A program made the translations under genes and the position numbers. The notes beneath the pieces were generated by a model. The model worked only from the letters and a program-made list of their open reading frames with translations, searched no databases and was not told the DNA's origin. From the NCBI GenBank assembly GCA_026416955.1, contig JAOAEE010000023.1, positions 21,122-85,121 on the forward strand: a stretch of 64,000 nt of DNA. The letters run 5' to 3'. The first letter of the stretch is position 1, and each line of letters opens with the position of its first letter. Source of the DNA: Ignavibacteria bacterium. GTDB taxonomy: Bacteria; Bacteroidota; Ignavibacteria; Kapaibacteriales; UBA2268. This document shows, piece after piece, positions 8,371 to 63,758 of the stretch.

Positions 8371-8757
8371 TTATTTTGCAACTGTCTGCTTGGGTCGTTT
8401 TGTGCCATATTTAGAACGACCTTGTTTTCTTCCGTCAACTCCTTGAGTGTCGGCAACACCACGAACAATATGGTAGCGAACGCCAGGTAAATCCTTCACT
8501 CGGCCACCACGAACATAAACTATCGAGTGCTCTTGAAGATTATGTCCTTCCCCGGGTATATAAGCAATAACTTCGTAGCCAGAACTTAATCGAACTTTTG
8601 CAACCTTCCTCAACGCAGAGTTTGGTTTCTTTGGGGTTGTTGTGTAAACACGAGTACAAACTCCACGCCTTTGCGGGCAAGATGCCAACGCCGGCGATTT
8701 ACTTTTCTTAATAATCCGTTTCCTCGGTTTTCTTACTAATTGACTTATCGTTGGCAC
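8371..8757 (-). CDS. rpsL: 30S ribosomal protein S12
   Basis: [12 protein letters not shown]...[12 protein letters not shown]...[15 protein letters not shown]. The GTG start has GGAG 7 nt upstream. Confidence 0.97.
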
Positions 8758-8806
8758 TCAACTACTCCTAAATCTAAATACAAAAAATTAAAAAAAGAGA
8801 CTACAA

Positions 8807-8820
8807 AATTACAAAAAAAA
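8807..8820. repeat. left copy of the 14-nt direct repeat AAATTACAAAAAAA flanking the R-M cassette
   Basis: Exact match to 10780-10793, read directly from the sequence. It lies in the spacer between the nuclease stop and the rpsL start. Confidence 0.6.
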
Positions 8821-8850
8821 TTAATTCACAAAATATTTAACAAAAATTTT

Positions 8851-9858
8851 TTAAAAAATTATCTTTAATATCAAGATTTCTATTGCTATGTATCTTAATT
8901 TGATGAAATGAATTATTTTATTCCAATTAATTGTAAATTTTCCAACTCTATTATCAATTTTTTTCCAAGAAGATAGAATATCCAATTCCTTCAAAATTCT
9001 TCTAATGTCTCTCAAATCACGAATAATATTAGTATTTTTTGTTGCTAACTTTTCTTTAATTATCTCCTCTGATAACAATCTATCGAAATGGTTCACACTT
9101 TCAAAAACATCGTATTTATCATTTAGCATTTGTATAATTCCTACGATATCTATATAATTTCCCTCTAATAAAAATAACTTTCTAAAAAACTCTTTCAGTT
9201 TTTCAAAATCTTCCGAATTAATAGACAAAAGTTCCTTTCCAAGATTAGAAACCCTGTTTAGAGAAAAATCAAATAGCTTTAAGTCTCTTATGAGCAATTT
9301 TGTGTTAAGAATATTTGATTGTTTAGAACTTTTCCACTTTCTTATTTTGGTGAGAGAAGTCCAAAGAATGTTATCTAAGTCTTGCTTTTTTGTAAAATTT
9401 TCACTTGAGTTTACTAATTCTTTTAAAATAAAATAGATTTCGTTAATTTTTAAATCCCGATAATAGGCATAACCTCTCTTAATATTTTCTTTTTCCACGA
9501 GAATTTGGGGTTGAAATATTGGCTCCCTGATAACTTCAACATTTTGGTAATCCACAGCAAGAATTCCAACATATTCTGGCCAAAGCCATTTTTCCAGTTC
9601 CAAAAATTCCTTTTTTGGCAAAGCAAGATATGATTTTTCAGAATGCCTACAAAAAGCTATAGCTTGTCCAAGCCCGGTTAGATATTCCCTACGACTAGCG
9701 TGGCTTGGTTTGCATTCAATCAATGCTATTGTACCATCCACAAACTGAACAGTAATATCAGGAACTGGAAAGGAAAAAGAATATCTTGATACAATCTCAA
9801 CCTCTGGTTTAATTTTAAACCAATTGGAGACAGTTTGAACTACTTCAAAATGGGTCAT
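8851..9858 (-). CDS. putative type II restriction endonuclease: N-terminal PD-(D/E)XK domain plus an uncharacterised helical C-terminal domain
   Basis: 335 aa. The segment ...FPVPDITVQFVDGTIALIECKP... fits the PD...(E)xK nuclease motif. Its ATG shares one base with the upstream MTase stop (TAATG). The gene is very AT-rich: my counts on two 60-nt lines give 17% and 23% GC. Confidence 0.55.
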   Translation of the reverse strand: MTHFEVVQTVSNWFKIKPEVEIVSRYSFSFPVPDITVQFVDGTIALIECKPSHASRREYLTGLGQAIAFCRHSEKSYLALPKKEFLELEKWLWPEYVGILAVDYQNVEVIREPIFQPQILVEKENIKRGYAYYRDLKINEIYFILKELVNSSENFTKKQDLDNILWTSLTKIRKWKSSKQSNILNTKLLIRDLKLFDFSLNRVSNLGKELLSINSEDFEKLKEFFRKLFLLEGNYIDIVGIIQMLNDKYDVFESVNHFDRLLSEEIIKEKLATKNTNIIRDLRDIRRILKELDILSSWKKIDNRVGKFTINWNKIIHFIKLRYIAIEILILKIIF

Positions 9859-10748
9859 TAAGACTTTTTAAAAATTAACACATAATCGTGATTGCAAATG
9901 AAATAATTTGAGCGCAAGGCTCTATACTTGTTAATGTTTATTTTACCTTGTCTGGATGTTGCAAACCTGGTTACCTTAATTATTTTTGCATAAAATTCAA
10001 ATCCAGTGTCCATTCCAATTTTTGTGGCATAGAAATCTAAAGGAATAGTTTTACCCCCTTTTTTAAAATCTTCACCAATTAACACACAAAAAAATTTCCC
10101 TGTTTTTAACAGCTCAAATACACCAGAAAAAACCAATTTCAATTTATCCAAGAAGCTTTCTAATGATGTTTCTTCGGATAAGTCGCCCGGTGCATTCCCA
10201 TATTCTTGGCTATATTTAACCAATTCCCAGTATGGTGGATGGGCAAAACAAAAATCAAAACTTTCCTTCTGAAAACCAAATTCCATTAACTTCGTGGAGT
10301 CTCCAATTATGATTTTTTGTTGGTCGAACCAATATTTTAACTCATCATCACCAAATTCTAACTTTTGTGATTCTAAATTTGATTTTGCAATTTCAACAAT
10401 TCTCGGGTTAATTTCAATTCCAATTGCTCTTCTTTTTAAATGTGCGGAAACAACTAATGTCGTTCCCGAACCACAAAAAGGGTCTAAAACTAAATCACCT
10501 TGCTTTGTAAACCTAAACAAACACTGCCTTGGAATTTCCACAGGTGAGTTTCCGTGAATTGTGTTTTTTGTCCAATTATAAGGGTCTCTCTCTGGTGTGT
10601 CCCAAATTGTGAAAAATTGTAAATTTAATTTCTCTTCATATTCACGCCATTTTTCAGGTTCCAGTTCATTAACACTCCCATTAATAGTTTTCGAATTGTT
10701 TATTATTTTCTTTTCAACTTTATCCTCGGTTTCAAAAAGCTTTTCCAT
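9858..10748 (-). CDS. DNA methyltransferase (N6/N4 amino-MTase family) with the SAM motif upstream of the catalytic motif
   Basis: 296 aa. HGNSPVEIPRQCLFRFTKQGDLVLDPFCGSGTTLVVSAHLKRRAIGIEIN matches the motif X/I block typical of N6_N4 MTases. It is followed by IIIGDSTKL...FDFCFAHPPYW, a motif IV-like xPPY. Confidence 0.8.
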   Translation of the reverse strand: MEKLFETEDKVEKKIINNSKTINGSVNELEPEKWREYEEKLNLQFFTIWDTPERDPYNWTKNTIHGNSPVEIPRQCLFRFTKQGDLVLDPFCGSGTTLVVSAHLKRRAIGIEINPRIVEIAKSNLESQKLEFGDDELKYWFDQQKIIIGDSTKLMEFGFQKESFDFCFAHPPYWELVKYSQEYGNAPGDLSEETSLESFLDKLKLVFSGVFELLKTGKFFCVLIGEDFKKGGKTIPLDFYATKIGMDTGFEFYAKIIKVTRFATSRQGKININKYRALRSNYFICNHDYVLIFKKS

Positions 10749-10779
10749 TTATTTTATTTTCCAAAAATCAAACGATATT

Positions 10780-10793
10780 AAATTACAAAAAAA
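10780..10793. repeat. right copy of the 14-nt direct repeat AAATTACAAAAAAA
   Basis: Exact match to 8807-8820. It lies in the 50-nt spacer between the EF-G paralog stop and the MTase start. Confidence 0.6.
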
Positions 10794-10798
10794 CTTTA

Positions 10799-12886
10799 TC
10801 ACTGTTTTTTTAACCTTTTATACTCTTCAACTAATTCTTCTTGGACAGAATTTGGAACTGGGGAATATCGTAAAAACTCCATTGTAAATTCTCCCTTACC
10901 TTGGGTCACTCCACGAAGACTCGATGAATAGCCAAACATCTCTTTCAAGGGAACTTCTGCCTCGACAACAACAAATCCACTGTCGACCCGTGTATTAATT
11001 ATTATTCCTCTTCGCTGATTTATTTGACCAATTATTACTCCTTGGAATTCCTCTGGTGCTGTAACTTCCAATTTCATAATAGGTTCTAAAATAACTGGCT
11101 TAGCTTTGGGCAACACTTCTTTAATTGCATATTTCGAGGCAAGTTTAAATGCCATTTCGGAAGAGTCTACTGGATGTGTTTGTCCATCATTAAGAACAAC
11201 TCTAACATTCACAACTGGTTTCCCTACTAATATTCCTTCCTTCAACTGCTCTTGAAAACCTTTATCGCAAGCGGGTATAAACTCTCTCGATATAACCCCA
11301 CCAACTATTTTGTCGACAAATTCATATTCTTTGCCTTCGCTTGCATCGATAGGTTCAATGTAACCTGCAACACGTGCAAATTGTCCTGCACCACCAGTTT
11401 GCTTTTTGTGGATATAGTTAAACTCTGCCTTTTTTGTTATAGTTTCTCTATATGCAACTTTGGGTTGACCAACAACGACTTCGCAATTGTATTCTCTTTT
11501 TATCCTTTCAAGATATATCTCAAGGTGTAATTCGCCCATCCCTTTAACTACAGTTTCTCCGGTTTCTTCATCGCGAAAGACTTGAAAAGTTGGGTCTTCT
11601 TTCTGAAATCTATTTAAAGCTTTCGAAAAGTTGTTTAATGCTGTTTTTTCTTTTGGGGCTACCGACAACTCGATTACCGGAGTTGGTACATACATCGATT
11701 GAAGAGAATAATTTACAGTTCCATCTGTAAATGTATCACCAGAATAACACTCTACTCCAAACATTGCAACGATATCTCCGGCAATTGCGGTTTCAATATC
11801 CGACATTTCCTGCGCGTGCATTCTAACAATTCGAGGAACCTTGATTTTCTTTTTACTTTTAACATTATATATCATATCACCTTTCGACACTTTTCCTTGG
11901 TAAATTCGCATATATGTTAACTGTCCGTATCTACCATCCTCGAGTTTAAAAGCAAGCCCAACAAAAGGCTTGTCGGGAGTACATTGTAACTTCACTTTCG
12001 ATTCGTTTTTGTCTAAATCAAATGCTTCATACTCTCTTTCGGAGGGATTAGGTAAGAACATACCGACTCCGTCCAACAAGGGCTGGACCCCTTTATTCTT
12101 CTTTGCCGACCCAACATAAACTGGGGTCACAAAGTGCGATATTGTTGCTTTTCGCAAACTCGATATGATTTTTTCTGTTGGGACTTGAACATCGGAAAGA
12201 TACATCTCGGCAATCTCGTCATCAAAATCAGCTAAAGTTTCAATCATTTGTATTCTGCGATACTCTGTTTCCTCTATCAACTCCTTAGGTATTTCTTTTT
12301 CGACAACTTTCTCACCATTTTCCCCTTCGAAGTATATTGCTTTCATTTTCAACAAATCGACAACACCAACGAAAGATTCTTCCAAGCCAATTGGCATAGT
12401 TACTAATACGGGGCGAAGATTCAATTTTTCTTTCATTTGTTGAACAACTTTGTCTGGATTTGCTCCGGAACGGTCCAATTTGTTTATGAAAGCAAGCCTG
12501 GAAACATTATACCTTCGTATCTGTCGGTCAACAGTTATTGTTTGGCTCTGTACTCCAGCGACCCCACAAAGCACAAGAATTGCTCCGTCGAGAACCCTAA
12601 GTGCTCTTTCCACTTCAACAGTAAAATCAATATGCCCCGGGGTATCTATCAAGTTGATATGATAATCCTGCCATCTGAAATAAGTTGAAGCAGATTGAAT
12701 TGTAATTCCTTTCTCTCTTTCCAAATCCATTGCATCAAGAGTTGGACCCGAACCGCTCTTATCCCGAACCTCAATAATTTGATGAATTCTTCCAGTGTAA
12801 TATAATATTCGTTCGCTTAAAGTTGTTTTTCCAGAATCAATATGGGCTGTTATTCCAATATTCCTAATCTTACTTAAATCTACCAT
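10799..12886 (-). CDS. elongation factor G paralog (resembles mitochondrial EF-G1 / spd-type)
   Basis: 695 aa with [17 protein letters not shown] and NKLD motifs. The domain IV tip reads [14 protein letters not shown]. Composition is host-like: one 60-nt line counted at 45% GC. Confidence 0.88.
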
Positions 12887-12956: not shown

Positions 12957-12980
12957 ACAAGGGGTTTAAACCCCTTGTTC
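12957..12980 (-). terminator. perfect palindromic hairpin after rpoC (terminator or attenuator candidate)
   Basis: AACAAGGGGTTTAAACCCCTTGTT forms an 11-bp inverted repeat with a GGGG/CCCC core. It lies 34 nt downstream of the rpoC stop. On the minus strand it is followed by TTTAATTAAT, a weak U-tract. Confidence 0.5.
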
Positions 12981-13013: not shown

Positions 13014-16000
13014 TTAATCAACAAATCTTTCTAATTCTTTTCCAGTTTTCTGCTCGATGGGTTTTGCTTTTTGCGTGACTGTTGCTTTTATACCTAAATC
13101 TTCATCAAAAATATTTCCAACTTCGCTTTTAACTACTATATCTTGATAATGCTTCAAACCAGTTCCTGCTGGAATCAATTGCCCAAGAATTATGTTTTCT
13201 TTCAAACCGTATAAATAATCCACTTTAGCCTGAACGGCAGCTTCGGAAAGCACTCTGGTTGTTTCTTGGAACGAAGCAGCAGACAACCAACTTTCGGTTT
13301 CGAGAGATGCTTGTGTGATTCCCAAAAGTACTGGTTCTGCGATTGCTGGGTCGGCGGGGCGAGCTTGTGCAACCTTTTTGCCTTTCTTTCTTAAATCTTG
13401 GTTAACCTCTCGGAACTTATCTTTCGAAACAATTTGACCAACTTTGAATTTTGAATCACCTTTATCGGTTATTACTACTTGTTTCTTCAACTTCTCGTTT
13501 TCGTCGATAATTCTAATTCTATCGACATAATCATTTTCGATAAACTTAGAATCGCCGGGGTCAGTAATTCTATATTTTTGCAACATTTGGCGAACAATTA
13601 TTTCGATGTGCTTATCGTTGATTTTAACACCTTGCATACGATAGACTTCTTGTATTTCGTTAACAAGGTACTCTTGAACTGCATTTGGTCCTTTAATTTT
13701 GAGAATGTCGTGTGGATTAATATCTCCATCGGTAAGACGGTCGCCAGCACGGACAAAATCACCATCTTGGACAAGAATATATTTTCCAAATGGAATATTG
13801 TATTCTTGCCGAGTTTTACCATCAAGAGAGGTAACAATAATAGTTCTTTGTCCACGCTTTACTTTTTCGAAAGTAACAATACCATCAATTTCAGAAACAA
13901 ATGCTGGATTTTGAGGTGCACGGGCTTCGAACAATTCAGTCACTCTTGGCAAACCACCAGTAATGTCGCGCATTCGTCCTAAATCGCGTGGAATCTTTAC
14001 CAATGGTGTACCAACTCCAACATACTCGTCCTCTTCGACACGTAATTGGGCTTTGACAGGGATAGAATATGAACGAACCACATTCCCTTTTTCATCGAGT
14101 ATTTCGATAGTTGGTTGTTTGTTTTTATCTCTGGATTCAATAACAACTTTAGTGATATGTCCAGTTTGTTCATCACTAATTTCTCGGTAGGTAACATTAT
14201 GAATCATATCTTTGAATCTAACACGCCCACTTGCTTCTGTTATAATTGTAGCATTATATGGGTCCCATTCATATAGCAACTGCCCTTTCTTTACTGTTTC
14301 GCCATCTCTTATTTTTAGTATTGCACCATACATAGCATCATATTTGGTTAGAATTCTATTACTATCGGGTTCGATAATATTTATTACACCATTTCTGGAT
14401 ACAACTACTTGTACTTCTTCTTCATCCTCTTCGTAAGAGACGGTTCTAATATTTTCGAACTTTGCTATACCATCGAACTTAGCAGATACAGATGATTGAC
14501 TAGTAATTAACAATGCTGTACCACCAGTATGGAAAGTACGCAATGTTAACTGAGTTCCCGGTTCCCCAATCGATTGCGATGCAATTGTTCCTACTGCTTC
14601 ACCAACATCGACAAGCTTTCCAGTAGCAAGGTTTCTACCATAACATTTGGCGCAAACTCCGTGGCGCGATTCGCAAGTAAGCACACTACGAATTGTTACC
14701 TCTTCGATAGGAGATTCTTCAATTTTTTGAGCAATATCTTCATCAATCATCTCGCCAGATTTACATAAAATTTCACCCGTAATTGGATGTTCAACATCCC
14801 AAAGTGCAACGCGTCCAAGAATTCTTTCGTACAAAGTTTCTTTTACCTCTTCTCCTTCCTTCAACGCAGTCATAACAACGCCACGAATTGTTCCGCAATC
14901 GTGTTCTGTAATAATAATATCTTGGGCAACATCGTGCAATCGACGGGTCAAATACCCAGCATCCGCGGTCTTCAAAGCGGTATCAGCTAATCCTTTGCGT
15001 GCACCGTGGGTAGAAATGAAATATTCAAGTATCGAAAGCCCTTCTTTGAAGTTAGAAAGTATCGGGTTCTCAATTAACTCGCCGGTGGAACCAGTTAGCG
15101 ATTTTCTTGGCTTTGCCATCAAGCCACGCATTCCAGCCAACTGACGAATTTGTTCTTTTGAACCACGTGCTTGGGAATCCAACATCATCCAAAAAGTATT
15201 AAATCCTTGGTCTACTTTTGAAATTTCATTGTACAATTTATCGGCAACTCGATTTGTTGCAGTCGACCAAGTATCAATAATTTTGTTGTATCTTTCACCA
15301 AAGCTAATAACACCATTTTGATATGCCGTTTCAATTTCCTCAACTCTTTTTTTCGCTTGCTCTATTATCTCGTACTTTTCTTTCGGAATGACCACGTCGG
15401 AAATGCTTACAGAAAGTCCACCGCGAGTAGCATATTCAAATCCTATTTGCTTTAAATTATCCAGAAACTCAACTGTTGTCGCTAAACCAGCAACACGGAA
15501 ACAATAACCAATAATCTGACGTAGCCTCTTTTTCGTAAGTAACTCATTAATAAATCCTAATTCTTTTGGAACAATTTGGTTTAGCAAGACCCTACCGGTG
15601 GTCGTTTCAACTAATTTACCATCAATTTTGACTTTTATTTTTGCGTGCAAATCCAAAACACCATTATTATGGGCGATAATAACTTCGGAAGGCGAATTAA
15701 ATATCTTTCCTTCGCCCTTAACGCCAGACTTTGCTTTGGTAATGTAGTAAATGCCTAAAACCATATCTTGTGATGGAACAGCAATTGGGTCACCATTTTG
15801 TGTATGGACAATGTTGTGTGGAGCAAGCATAAGAAGCAAAGCTTCGAGTTGTGCTTCGAAACTTAAAGGAACGTGAACTGCCATCTGGTCACCGTCGAAG
15901 TCAGCGTTGAAAGCTGTACAAACCAAAGGATGCAATTGTATTGCTTTCCCCTCTATTAGTCTTGGTTGAAATGCTTGAATACCAACTCGGTGCAATGTTG

Positions 16001-17306
16001 GTGCACGATTTAGCAAAACTGGATGATTTTCTATAACTTTTTCCAAAATGTCCCAAACCTCGTTCGTTTTCTTTTCGACCAATTTCTTTGCACTTTTTAC
16101 TGTTCGGCAATGACCTCTTTCAATAAGTTTTCGTATAATAAAGGGCTTAAACAACTCGACAGCCATATCCTTAGGCAATCCACATTCGTGCATTTTAAGT
16201 TCAGGACCGACCACAATAACGGAGCGACCGGAATAATCGACGCGTTTACCAAGCAAATTCTGACGGAACCTTCCTTGTTTACCCTTCAAAGCATCTGCAA
16301 GAGACTTCAAAGGTTTATTCGACTCTGTCTTAGTTACTTTTCTCGAACTATCAAAAAGTGCATCAACACTTTCTTGAAGCATTCTTTGTTCGTTTCGAAT
16401 AATTACAGCGGGGGCTTTAATATCCATCAATCTCTTTAAACGGTTATTTCGAATAATAACCCTTCGATAAAGGTCGTTTAAATCCGATGCAGCAAATCTC
16501 CCGCCTTCCAAAGGAATCAGTGGCCTAAGGTCTGGGGGAATAACTGGAATTACATCCAAGACCATCCATTCTGGGCGATTTATTGGTTCTCCAGTCTTTT
16601 CGTCGGGAAGAAAAGCCTCCAATACTTTTAGCCGTTTGAATATTTCTTGCTTTTTCTGAGGATTTTTTTCATCGCGCATCAAAGTTCTTAACTTATAATA
16701 TTCCTCTTCGACATCTACTCTTTTAAGCAATTCTTTAATTGCTTGTCCCCCCATCAAAGCAAGAAACTTATTTGGGTCGTCGTCGTCAAGATATTTCTCC
16801 TCGTCAGTAAGGCTTTCCATAATGTTGTTGTATTCTACGTCGGAGATTAAATCGTACTTCTTAAAAGGAAACTTACCAGGATTTACAACAACATAAGTTT
16901 CGTAATAAACTATCTTTTCCAGATCTTTCGAAGATAAACCGAGAACTGCACCAATTTTACTTGGCAAACTCCGTAGAAACCAAATATGAACAACAGGAGT
17001 AGCCAACATTATGTGGCCCATTCTTTCACGGCGCACAGTCTTTTGAGTAACTTCTACTCCACATCTATCGCAAACAATGCCTTTATACCTAATTCTCTTA
17101 TATTTGCCGCAAGCGCATTCCCAATCTTTTACGGGACCAAATATTTTTTCGCAGAATAGACCATCCTTTTCTGGTCTATATGAACGATAGTTAATAGTTT
17201 CTGGCTTTGTAACCTCCCCTCGAGAGCGTTCGAGAATAGAATCGGGGGAAGCAATTTTAATCATTACTTTTCTAAACCCTTTTTTTGGAATTGGTTTCCC
17301 TTGCAT
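13014..17306 (-). CDS. rpoC: DNA-directed RNA polymerase subunit beta-prime
   Basis: 1430 aa. It carries the zinc-finger CxCGKY...CDRCGVEV, the catalytic NADFDGDQM motif, and trigger-loop and bridge-helix regions. Confidence 0.98.
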
Positions 17307-27053: not shown

Positions 27054-27118
27054 AAAGGACAATTTTATCCGATTTTATTCGTTACTTTTTTTTGTAATTT
27101 TATTTTTTTGGTGAACCT

Positions 27119-28079: not shown

Positions 28080-28553
28080 ATGGGTAATTTCAATCCACAA
28101 AATTTAGTCGAACTTGCTCTTAAAGTAGAAGAAAAAGGTGCCAAAGTGTACAATCAACTTGCTGAAAAATTTGCTTCTAATTCAGAAATTTCTGAAACTT
28201 TTCGACTTTTAGCCCGAGACGAGCAAATTCACTATAACCAATTTCTTGCATTAAAAAAGGAAATTCCCGAAACACTAGACAATATCTCAAAAACAAGCGA
28301 AGAATTTTTTAATTATATCGATTTAGAACGGTATTTCCTGCTGTTCGACTCTGTAAGCGAATTGGATAAAATTCTTAAATATGCATACGATTTTGAACGC
28401 GACACTTACATTTTCTACACTGCAATCAGAGACGCAGTCGGAAAATTCGAGGTTTTGGACTCAATTATCGAATTCGAAAAGTCGCATATGATAAAATTGT
28501 TGCAATATATTCTAACCGAAAGTAAGTTCCGTGGTATAGCCGACAAATTTTAG
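28080..28553 (+). CDS. ferritin-like / rubrerythrin-family four-helix-bundle protein
   Basis: 157 aa with paired ExxH-type segments: LARDEQIHYNQF and EFEKSHMIKLLQ. GGTGA lies upstream of the ATG. Confidence 0.65.
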   Translation: MGNFNPQNLVELALKVEEKGAKVYNQLAEKFASNSEISETFRLLARDEQIHYNQFLALKKEIPETLDNISKTSEEFFNYIDLERYFLLFDSVSELDKILKYAYDFERDTYIFYTAIRDAVGKFEVLDSIIEFEKSHMIKLLQYILTESKFRGIADKF

Positions 28554-62332: not shown

Positions 62333-63262
62333 CTACGAAATTTTCTCTGCCGCTCTCAATTTTGCACTACGCGAACGTGGATTTAAGGCTATTTCTTCTT
62401 TACTTGGAACTATAGGCTTTTTGGTTAATACCTTCAATCTTGGCATTATTTTTGAGGTTTCATTTACTTTTGACAAAGAAAATTTGCGAAAGAAATTTTT
62501 AACTATGCGGTCTTCAAGCGAATGGTACGAAATCACAACAATCCTACCCCCTTTGGATAGGCATCCAAGAGAGGCAAACAAAGCGTTTTCCAATACGTTA
62601 AGTTCATCATTTATTGCGATTCTAATAGCCTGGAAAACCCGAGATAGGGACTTAACTAAATATTTCTTTGGCACAACATTTTCCACCACTTTTGCAAGGT
62701 CGACAGTTGTACGAAGTGGGGAAATTTTCCGCTGTTGGACAATTGCCTTAGCAATTTTTTTGGCAAAAGGCTCTTCTCCGTATCTTTGGAGAAGAGCCGC
62801 CAAAACTTCCTCGTTTGCTGCGTTGACAAGGTCTTCTGCTGTTTGTCCGTGCGGTGAAAAACGCAAATCCAAAGGGCCAACCGCACGATACGAAAAGCCA
62901 CGGCGGCTCTCGTCGAGCTGCCGTGACGACACCCCCAAATCAAGCAGAAAACCTGTCCATTCCCCCCGATGTCTCGTTATGCTGCATGCTTTACTAAAAC
63001 ACTCATTGAAAAGTTCAATTCTCGAACGCTCCCCTCGTTCGAGTTCCCCCTTAAACCTTTCTTTACAAAATTCAATTGCCTCAATATCTTTATCAAATCC
63101 AAATATTCTTCCTCCTTCTCCAAGTCTTTCTAAAATCTTCTCTGAATGCCCACCTCCCCCAATAGTTCCATCTACATAAATACCATTCTCATCTGTTACA
63201 AGCAACTCAACTACTTCTTTTAAAAGAACCGGAATATGATAAAAAACCTGCTCTTTTGCCAT
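62333..63262 (-). CDS. rsmH: 16S rRNA (cytosine1402-N4)-methyltransferase
   Basis: HIPVLLKEVVELL...DGTIGGGGHSE...LLDLGVSS.QLD...SYHSLEDR... The position after mraZ supports the call. Confidence 0.96.
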   Translation of the reverse strand: MAKEQVFYHIPVLLKEVVELLVTDENGIYVDGTIGGGGHSEKILERLGEGGRIFGFDKDIEAIEFCKERFKGELERGERSRIELFNECFSKACSITRHRGEWTGFLLDLGVSSRQLDESRRGFSYRAVGPLDLRFSPHGQTAEDLVNAANEEVLAALLQRYGEEPFAKKIAKAIVQQRKISPLRTTVDLAKVVENVVPKKYLVKSLSRVFQAIRIAINDELNVLENALFASLGCLSKGGRIVVISYHSLEDRIVKNFFRKFSLSKVNETSKIMPRLKVLTKKPIVPSKEEIALNPRSRSAKLRAAEKIS

Positions 63263-63266
63263 CGAA

Positions 63267-63758
63267 TTAATTTTCTTCGTAACCCTCTACTTTTTGTCCA
63301 ACCCCGTTATAATGATTTGTACCAAGCACTTTTTCGAATACCTTTGCATATTCTTCCTCGTCGAACGTATATATTCGATTGAATTCATCTGGATTCCAAA
63401 TCTCGATATGGTCAATTTTCCCTACCAACAACGCCTTGTTTTCTATTTTTGCATAGATTAGCAAATCCTTTGGAATCAAAATTCTATTTTGTGCATCAAG
63501 AGAAGTTTCCTTACAAAACATTGTAAGAAAAGTAATTATTTTATCATTTTCTGGATTAAATGGGTTCAACTCCAAAAGTTTCTTTTGAATTTTTTCCCAT
63601 TGGTCAATCGGATACGCCACTATGCATTTCCGTATGCCTCGTGTAATTGTAAATGTTTCCCTTGCTTCGGGGCTGAGCGCTCGACGCATCATTGGAGGTA
63701 TAGTTACCCGACCTTTGTTATCAATAATATATTCTTCGCTACCTTGAAAAAAAGTCAT
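63267..63758 (-). CDS. mraZ: transcriptional regulator MraZ
   Basis: Has two DxxxR-type SpoVT/AbrB-like repeats, DNKGRVTIP and DAQNRILIP. It lies directly upstream of rsmH. Confidence 0.93.
   Translation of the reverse strand: MTFFQGSEEYIIDNKGRVTIPPMMRRALSPEARETFTITRGIRKCIVAYPIDQWEKIQKKLLELNPFNPENDKIITFLTMFCKETSLDAQNRILIPKDLLIYAKIENKALLVGKIDHIEIWNPDEFNRIYTFDEEEYAKVFEKVLGTNHYNGVGQKVEGYEEN

Follow-up and report, generated by a model that had tools for sequence, protein, structure and literature searches.

Here we examine a 64,000-nucleotide (nt) stretch of DNA (the window) from an Ignavibacteria bacterium (GenBank assembly GCA_026416955.1, contig JAOAEE010000023.1, positions 21,122 to 85,121), in which two genes of a putative restriction–modification (R–M) module lie between a paralogue of elongation factor G (EF-G) and rpsL, the first gene of the str operon. 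The genome to which the window belongs, referred to here as G000, comprises 2.49 Mb in 78 contigs, with a guanine plus cytosine (GC) content of 34.8%; the other G and L codes denote the relative genomes and loci with which it was compared. A sequencing-run search placed the DNA of the window in two hot-spring metagenome DNA runs and listed no RNA run that contains it. We conclude, with a probability of about 80%, that the gene pair is a two-gene Type II R–M module that has a nuclease with the layout of the enzyme PaqCI, has long resided after the stop codon of the EF-G paralogue and carries its own promoter-like word, which would explain a 14-nt repeat that had been taken as the mark of an insertion.

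Every gene in the first 17 kb of the window is on the minus strand, in the order rpoC (13014–17306), the EF-G paralogue (10799–12886; TIGR00484, E = 1.7e-279), an open reading frame (ORF) of 296 amino acids (9858–10748), an ORF of 335 amino acids (8851–9858), rpsL (8371–8757, with a GTG start), rpsG, fusA and tuf. A preliminary description of the locus had proposed that the two ORFs encode a methyltransferase (MTase) and a PD-(D/E)XK nuclease, together forming an AT-rich cassette of foreign origin. Its account of the gene layout holds: both ORFs are present between the EF-G paralogue and the str genes, co-directional with their neighbours, and the TAATG junction (9856–9860), in which the stop codon of the MTase gene (M) and the start codon of the nuclease gene (R) share base 9858, can be read directly on the minus strand. 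No recombinase-like ORF is found nearby, all neighbours being rpo, str or ribosomal genes. At homologous loci the junction consists of ATGA or another short overlap, or of a gap of a few bases.

A terminator-like hairpin (AGGGG...CCCCT with a T-rich tail) at 12959–12975 on the minus strand, between the rpoC stop and the start of the EF-G paralogue, suggests that the EF-G paralogue is not simply co-transcribed with rpoC. A terminator scan found no terminator-like hairpin between the EF-G paralogue and the MTase gene, so read-through into the cassette, which had been regarded as assured, is possible but unproven. The cassette is located between two transcription units: with the EF-G stop upstream of it and an intact, conserved rpsL promoter downstream, it leaves the str operon uninterrupted.

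The 296-amino-acid protein matches Pfam family PF01555 (N6_N4_Mtase; E = 3.5e-28) and, over residues 24–295, the PADLOC model of Type II MTases (MTase_II; E = 6e-50). It contains both the S-adenosylmethionine (SAM) motif I (FCGSGT, residues 91–96) and a catalytic motif IV of the (D/N/S)PP(Y/F/W) kind with an unusual first residue (HPPY, residues 170–173), and motif I precedes motif IV. The nearest solved structure, 2zie, aligns with it as two swapped blocks (E = 1e-20): the N-terminal part of the protein, which holds motif I, pairs with the C-terminal part of 2zie, and its central HPPYW pairs with the N-terminal SPPYW region. This swap marks the protein as a circularly permuted relative of the beta-class amino-MTases. 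It shares homologous SAM-binding and catalytic halves, and an aligned xPPYW loop, with the TTHA0409-type N6/N4 MTases of that class (2zie; PF01555), but the halves are exchanged and HPPY stands in place of S/D/NPPY. HPPY is kept in 90 of the 93 family members retrieved (including P0058–P0147), among them Thermoplasmata proteins at 32% identity, and motif I lies ahead of motif IV in 50 of the 52 members in which both could be located. From these motifs and alignments, we predict that the protein is a permuted N6/N4 DNA amino-MTase, acting on N6 of adenine or N4 of cytosine. The MTase query also matched nine places in the G000 genome (contigs C4, C11, C18, C25, C67 and others), which therefore probably encodes several other DNA MTases or R–M systems.

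The 335-amino-acid protein had no match in Pfam, NCBIfam or PADLOC. A sequence-profile search of the PDB returned only noise (E of 0.78 or worse), and the near neighbours found by an ESM Atlas look-up are all unnamed clusters. The family is rare: a set of 5.8 billion proteins contains 21 clusters of it, and one of 1.84 billion yields 32 representatives at E ≤ 1e-3. Its 17 homologues are colinear and have 47 invariant residues (including P33, D34, E48, C49 and K50), all of which are present in the full-length G000 protein. An AlphaFold (AF2) model built from the alignment of homologues (predicted local distance difference test (pLDDT) score, 87.5; predicted template modelling (pTM) score, 0.83) has an alpha-beta-beta-beta-alpha-beta core (helix 3–15; strands 20–24, 35–39 and 44–49; helix 56–69; strand 75–81), with D34 at the start of strand 2 and E48 and K50 on strand 3. 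Both the core topology and the placement of the D and (D/E)xK residues are those of the PD-(D/E)XK superfamily. This N-terminal domain (approximately residues 1–115; P33 D34 ... E48 C49 K50) is followed by a C-terminal helical/winged-helix recognition domain of about 190 residues (approximately 136–322), and the single chain thus has the separate cleavage and recognition domains of Type IIS, PaqCI-like enzymes.

PaqCI (8EM1) is the top Foldseek match of the model (E = 8e-11) and also leads a Foldseek-independent search (VIA), with a Z score of 22.4 over 310 of 335 residues and a root-mean-square deviation of 4.1; the next matches are far lower. PaqCI is a Type IIS restriction endonuclease (REase) (CACCTGC 4/8; PDB 8EM1/8EPX) with an N-terminal endonuclease (EN) domain, a target-recognition domain (TRD) at the C terminus and the catalytic residues D54, E73 and K75 (PMC10201449). 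The two proteins have in common the order of PD-(D/E)XK and recognition domains, a D...ExK triad and a structural match over the full length. They differ in that the G000 nuclease is around 150 residues shorter (335 amino acids versus approximately 490–510) and is partnered by one small amino-MTase; their identity is 13%, with no match at the level of sequence, so the likeness holds at the level of the fold only. The N-terminal domain taken alone resembles the nuclease domains of NucS, SdaI, Can2 and similar proteins (Z scores of 7–10). The winged-helix region (residues 130–327) resembles the recognition domains of FokI (Z = 10.3, 180 residues) and BpuJI (Z = 9.1, 176 residues), although the nuclease domain of FokI is C-terminal, the opposite order, and this likeness too is one of fold only. 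As modelled, the protein is a PaqCI-like PD-(D/E)XK restriction endonuclease from a rare, previously uncharacterised family. Its 13-residue C-terminal tail, YIAIEILILKIIF (window positions 8851–8892), has no counterpart in the 16 aligned homologues and a pLDDT of <50; it looks like the product of a lost or shifted stop codon, with translation reading into the spacer.

The pairing of the two genes is conserved well beyond G000. At all 13 loci that carry close homologues of the nuclease (from Kapabacteria, Ignavibacteria, a Chlorobi metagenome-assembled genome (MAG), WOR-3 and several Bathyarchaeia), the same MTase lies directly upstream, in M-then-R order. The linkage expected of a Type II R–M system is thus conserved in both bacteria and archaea, and it is kept in unrelated contexts (rseP/dnaX, histidine kinase/aminotransferase, rnhB/ftsK and archaeal contigs). 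The MTase is always the more conserved of the two (55–76% versus 40–63% identity). Three loci have a lesion in the nuclease gene alone: a stop replaces the invariant W13 in L037 and the invariant E58 in L039, and L046 has a frameshift. In G009, L047, G001 and G004 neither gene is intact, and none of the loci compared pairs a damaged MTase gene with an intact nuclease gene. Such a bias towards loss of R first is as expected if the nuclease is harmful without its methylase. Taken together, the MTase family, the PaqCI-like nuclease, the 13 of 13 linkage and the R-only decay bear out the proposal of an R–M module with overlapping M and R reading frames. The patchy spread of the family across phyla and both domains of life also indicates horizontal acquisition at some point, the part of the proposed foreign origin that stands; recent arrival as a foreign island is not supported.

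Comparison of per-domain identities between cassette copies showed no swap of the recognition domain. An ORF of 115–116 amino acids upstream of the pair in two other contexts was considered as a controller or third component and rejected, as the proteins from the two contexts proved unrelated.

Type IIS systems usually need protection of both strands, and their usual gene arrangement is two C5-MTases, or a fused double C5-MTase, followed by the REase. This arrangement is found among remote homologues of the G000 nuclease (22–28% identity; Clostridia, Flavobacteriia and others), which lie behind two tandem C5-MTases or one fused double C5-MTase. The Kapaibacterium subfamily has a single amino-MTase instead: rather than two MTase activities, one for each strand, there is one 296-amino-acid enzyme here and a single MTase in all of the close homologues. 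This lowers the case for a classical Type IIS system and leaves that for a PaqCI-like fold unaffected.

The AT-rich character of the cassette had been judged from GC counts on single lines of sequence. Over whole genes, GC is 32.7% for the MTase, 29.3% for the nuclease, 38.4% for the EF-G paralogue and 44.4% for rpsL; the flanks are indeed richer in GC, but the single-line counts exaggerated the contrast. Relative to all G000 genes (mean GC, 35.3 ± 3.5%), the MTase gene ranks at percentile 23 for GC and 45 for GC at third codon positions (GC3), and the nuclease gene at percentiles 4 and 12. Their synonymous codon-choice likelihoods under a genome-wide model are at the 90th (MTase) and 77th (nuclease) percentiles, which places both closer to the norm of the genome than the average gene. 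It is the flanking translation and RNA polymerase genes that are atypical, with rpsL at the 99.7th percentile for GC and the 0.7th for codon-choice likelihood, and rpsG at the 99th for GC. The expected departure from the genome mean is absent for the MTase gene, the GC of which is like that of the genome, and only the nuclease gene, at the 4th percentile, tends that way. The cassette does not fall outside the host range in GC, GC3 and codon use, and these three measures provide no evidence of a recent foreign origin; its AT-rich appearance is mainly a contrast effect against the GC-rich rpo and str flanks.

The 14-mer AAATTACAAAAAAA is present at 8806–8819 and 10780–10793, with a third exact copy on the other strand at 27087–27100; read on the coding strand of the cassette it is TTTTTTTGTAATTT. 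That the repeat is exact and that two copies flank the gene pair is correct, with the first copy at 8806–8819 rather than at 8807–8820 as originally given. It is not a sequence specific to an insertion: there are eight copies in the G000 genome, which makes it a common word, and seven of these precede a substantial ORF in sense orientation, at a distance of 18–48 nt from its start. The 14-mer and its cores are enriched 10–21-fold in the 100 nt upstream of ORFs, peaking 20–50 nt from the start. Both copies at this locus lie at promoter distance. The rpsL-side copy is inside a block (8794–8832, minus strand) that is kept upstream of rpsL in every member of the genus, whether the site is filled or empty, and that consists of a −33 element TTTG (8829–8832), a 17-nt spacer and a −7 element TAATTTTG (8804–8811). 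This block fits the Bacteroidota-type −33/−7 consensus, TTTG / TAnnTTTG, of Bacteroides and Flavobacterium promoters. The MTase-side copy, 31 nt upstream of the MTase ATG, has only the 14 nt in common with the rpsL block. Similar words precede the MTase gene in relatives, with 11 nt shared in G003, 13 of 14 in L037 and TAATTTTGTA before an ectopic copy in G009. The MTase-side 14-mer most likely acts as the cassette's own promoter.

The arrangement of blocks at filled and empty sites argues in the same direction. At empty sites the EF-G stop is followed by a spacer, X (about 33–34 nt, including the −33 box), then the repeat and rpsL; at the filled site the order is EF-G stop, 5 nt, repeat, cassette, X, repeat and rpsL. 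The ancestral spacer X is confined to the right side of the cassette, which makes the left repeat part of the inserted DNA and not a duplicated target, and the order of the blocks puts the insertion point immediately behind the EF-G stop. As had been predicted, there is one copy of the repeat at empty sites, but a simple target duplication is excluded by the block order, which is not that of an insert bounded by repeats with the ancestral order kept. A shared promoter consensus explains the repeat better than an insertion mechanism does. The probability that two random 95-nt upstream regions of G000 share an exact word of at least 14 nt is 1.4e-3, so the repeat is not trivial noise, and there may be a historical link between the two copies, such as the copying of part of a promoter.

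The relatives compared are labelled Candidatus Kapaibacterium, Kapabacteria or Ignavibacteria. In outgroup genera of the family the gene order is rpoC, EF-G paralogue, rpsL, rpsG and fusA, with nothing between the EF-G paralogue and rpsL, and the gap from the EF-G paralogue to fusA is around 1.0–1.3 kb compared with around 3.0 kb in G000. The order rpoC, EF-G paralogue, rpsL is ancestral in the family, and no nuclease homologue was found in the other genera searched. Five lineages, from two sister genera, share the cassette at this site. It is intact between the EF-G paralogue and rpsL in G000 and G003, has a nonsense mutation in the nuclease in L037, is present as pseudogenes in G001 and is reduced to small remnants behind the EF-G paralogue in G004, in which rpsL has moved to another block. 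It is absent from G002, G005, G006 and G007. A rearrangement has also moved rpsL to another block in G008; in G009 the site is empty and a synteny break between rnhB and ftsK holds a broken ectopic copy. These empty sites, pseudogenes, remnants and rearrangement breakpoints contradict the suggestion that deletion from such a locus would be risky; loss of the cassette is tolerated. As reconstructed from the gene orders, the cassette appears to be an old acquisition that has undergone repeated decay and loss, an often-decaying resident of the site.

Copies at this site share 55–76% protein identity. Between G000 and G003, identity is 73% (72.6%) for the MTase and 63% for the nuclease, both inside the span of 56–87% for non-ribosomal neighbours; the MTase of L037, at 75.9%, is closer to that of G000 than is the MTase of G003. 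Among all homologues, the four cassettes of the Kapaibacterium group fall into one clade; the nuclease tree sets G000 and G003 apart from L037 and G009, which is compatible with the tree of the flanks. The rpoC and EF-G genes of L037 place it with G021, in the sister genus. The site of G021 itself is empty; within its 353-nt spacer there is a possible trace of the nuclease 3′ end at the right junction (P = 0.013), with P = 0.57 for the left junction.

The L037 contig (CAZPSM010000002.1) is labelled 'uncultured Hyphomicrobiales', with rpoC, EF-G and rpsL 86–90% identical to those of Kapaibacterium, and is probably mis-binned; its EF-G paralogue is apparently frameshifted near residues 134–170. 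Breakpoints coincide with the cassette at L029 (G004:C8), L023 (G004:C2), L025 (G008:C216) and L036 (G009:C44). In G004 and G008, the new neighbour of rpsL is a block with synteny to G000 contig C32, the cassette remnants having stayed behind the EF-G paralogue; the broken cassette of G009 marks the junction of two blocks, one syntenic with contig C15 of G000 and the other with C26.

We propose that within a specific DNA sequence the MTase would methylate an exocyclic amino group, giving m6A or m4C, and that the downstream, translationally coupled nuclease would cut unmodified DNA, probably in a Type IIS-like manner beside an asymmetric site. The module would have entered the spacer just after the EF-G paralogue stop, upstream of the intact rpsL promoter, bringing its own promoter-like word. 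Entry may have occurred in the ancestor of the Kapaibacterium group, or the module may have spread among relatives through their highly conserved flanks; it would afterwards have been kept intact in some lineages (G000 and G003) and elsewhere have decayed, R first, or been deleted. Several observations weigh against this account. The identity of the nuclease to PaqCI is only 13%, and there is only one MTase, whereas protection of both strands is usual in Type IIS systems. HPPY is an unusual catalytic tetrapeptide, and searching the literature for such an MTase motif returned irrelevant matches only and no description of the variant. The genomes are MAGs, in which some stops and frameshifts may be assembly errors, and a shared 14-mer occurs in only 0.14% of random pairs of promoter regions. 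In addition, the distance between the G000 and G003 cassettes is about 3.6-fold that of their flanks, compared with 1.6–2.2-fold for more distant pairs, and strict vertical descent is thus not proven.

This last disproportion bears on the strongest competitor, in which the same R–M module has been transferred repeatedly between related species by homologous recombination in the rpoC/EF-G and rpsL flanks. The inconstant ratio of cassette to flank distance is in keeping with such transfer, as are the nearness of the L037 MTase to that of G000 and the patchy distribution on the flank tree, in which filled G003 has an empty sister in G007 and filled L037 an empty sister in G021. The nuclease tree nevertheless follows the species grouping, the pseudogenes and remnants show long residence, and the possible nuclease scar in the spacer of G021 would fit deletion; we regard repeated transfer as a real but minority possibility. 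The preliminary reading, a recent and compositionally foreign R–M island whose insertion duplicated a 14-nt target, accounts for an exact repeat on both sides of the pair, for single copies at empty sites, for the low GC of the nuclease gene and for a coincidence rarely met between promoter regions. It is largely refuted, and we consider it very unlikely, given the host-typical GC, GC3 and codon use of the MTase gene, the presence, at this one site, of diverged and in part heavily decayed copies in five lineages drawn from two genera, the position of X to the right of the cassette only, the promoter placement of seven of the eight genomic 14-mers and the reduction of the left copy to an 11-nt match in G003. 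The pair in G000 may alternatively no longer restrict DNA, with the MTase acting as an epigenetic or orphan enzyme and the nuclease being inactive or repurposed. Frequent inactivation of R genes in the family and the odd, low-confidence tail of the G000 nuclease are compatible with this, but the nuclease is full length, all 47 invariant residues (including P33, D34, E48 and K50) are retained and the overlapping frames are kept, which makes loss of restriction improbable. Least probable of all, and close to negligible, is a role of the MTase in translation (methylation of rRNA, tRNA, a ribosomal protein or EF-G) beside an unrelated nuclease: the location among translation genes and weak, sub-threshold matches to models of RNA and protein MTases point that way, against which the strongest matches are to DNA MTases, the two genes travel together in unrelated contexts and most relatives lack the pair at this site.

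Elsewhere in the window, approximately 34 kb (28553–62333) are without a match in the syntenic region of G003, a complete relative, and the G000 genes at 62333–63758 match G003 directly beside the counterparts of 28080–28553. An insertion in G000 could account for the difference, as could a deletion in G003.

The two-gene module is of an ordinary kind among R–M systems; what is new is an uncharacterised nuclease family with a PaqCI-like architecture, combined with a single permuted HPPY amino-MTase. A rare protein family without a Pfam domain thereby gains a fold and a predicted function. The locus also illustrates that, in an AT-rich genome, GC-rich conserved translation genes can make ordinary neighbours look like 'AT-rich islands', and that short A/T-rich intergenic 'direct repeats' can be mere promoter words. 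More tentatively, and we think probably not in full, the module may represent a distinct R–M lineage, in which one small permuted HPPY amino-MTase protects a Type IIS-like nuclease of the PaqCI fold and which persists in Kapabacteria by re-seeding at one permissive spacer through recombination in the flanks. If so, either one enzyme would methylate both strands of an asymmetric site or methylation of a single strand would protect it. As the family comes from hot-spring bacteria and archaea, it could supply new, possibly thermostable, Type IIS-like specificities. At one locus, its members form a series of decay that runs from the intact module through a nonsense mutation in R, the loss of both genes to pseudogenes and a remnant to the empty site.

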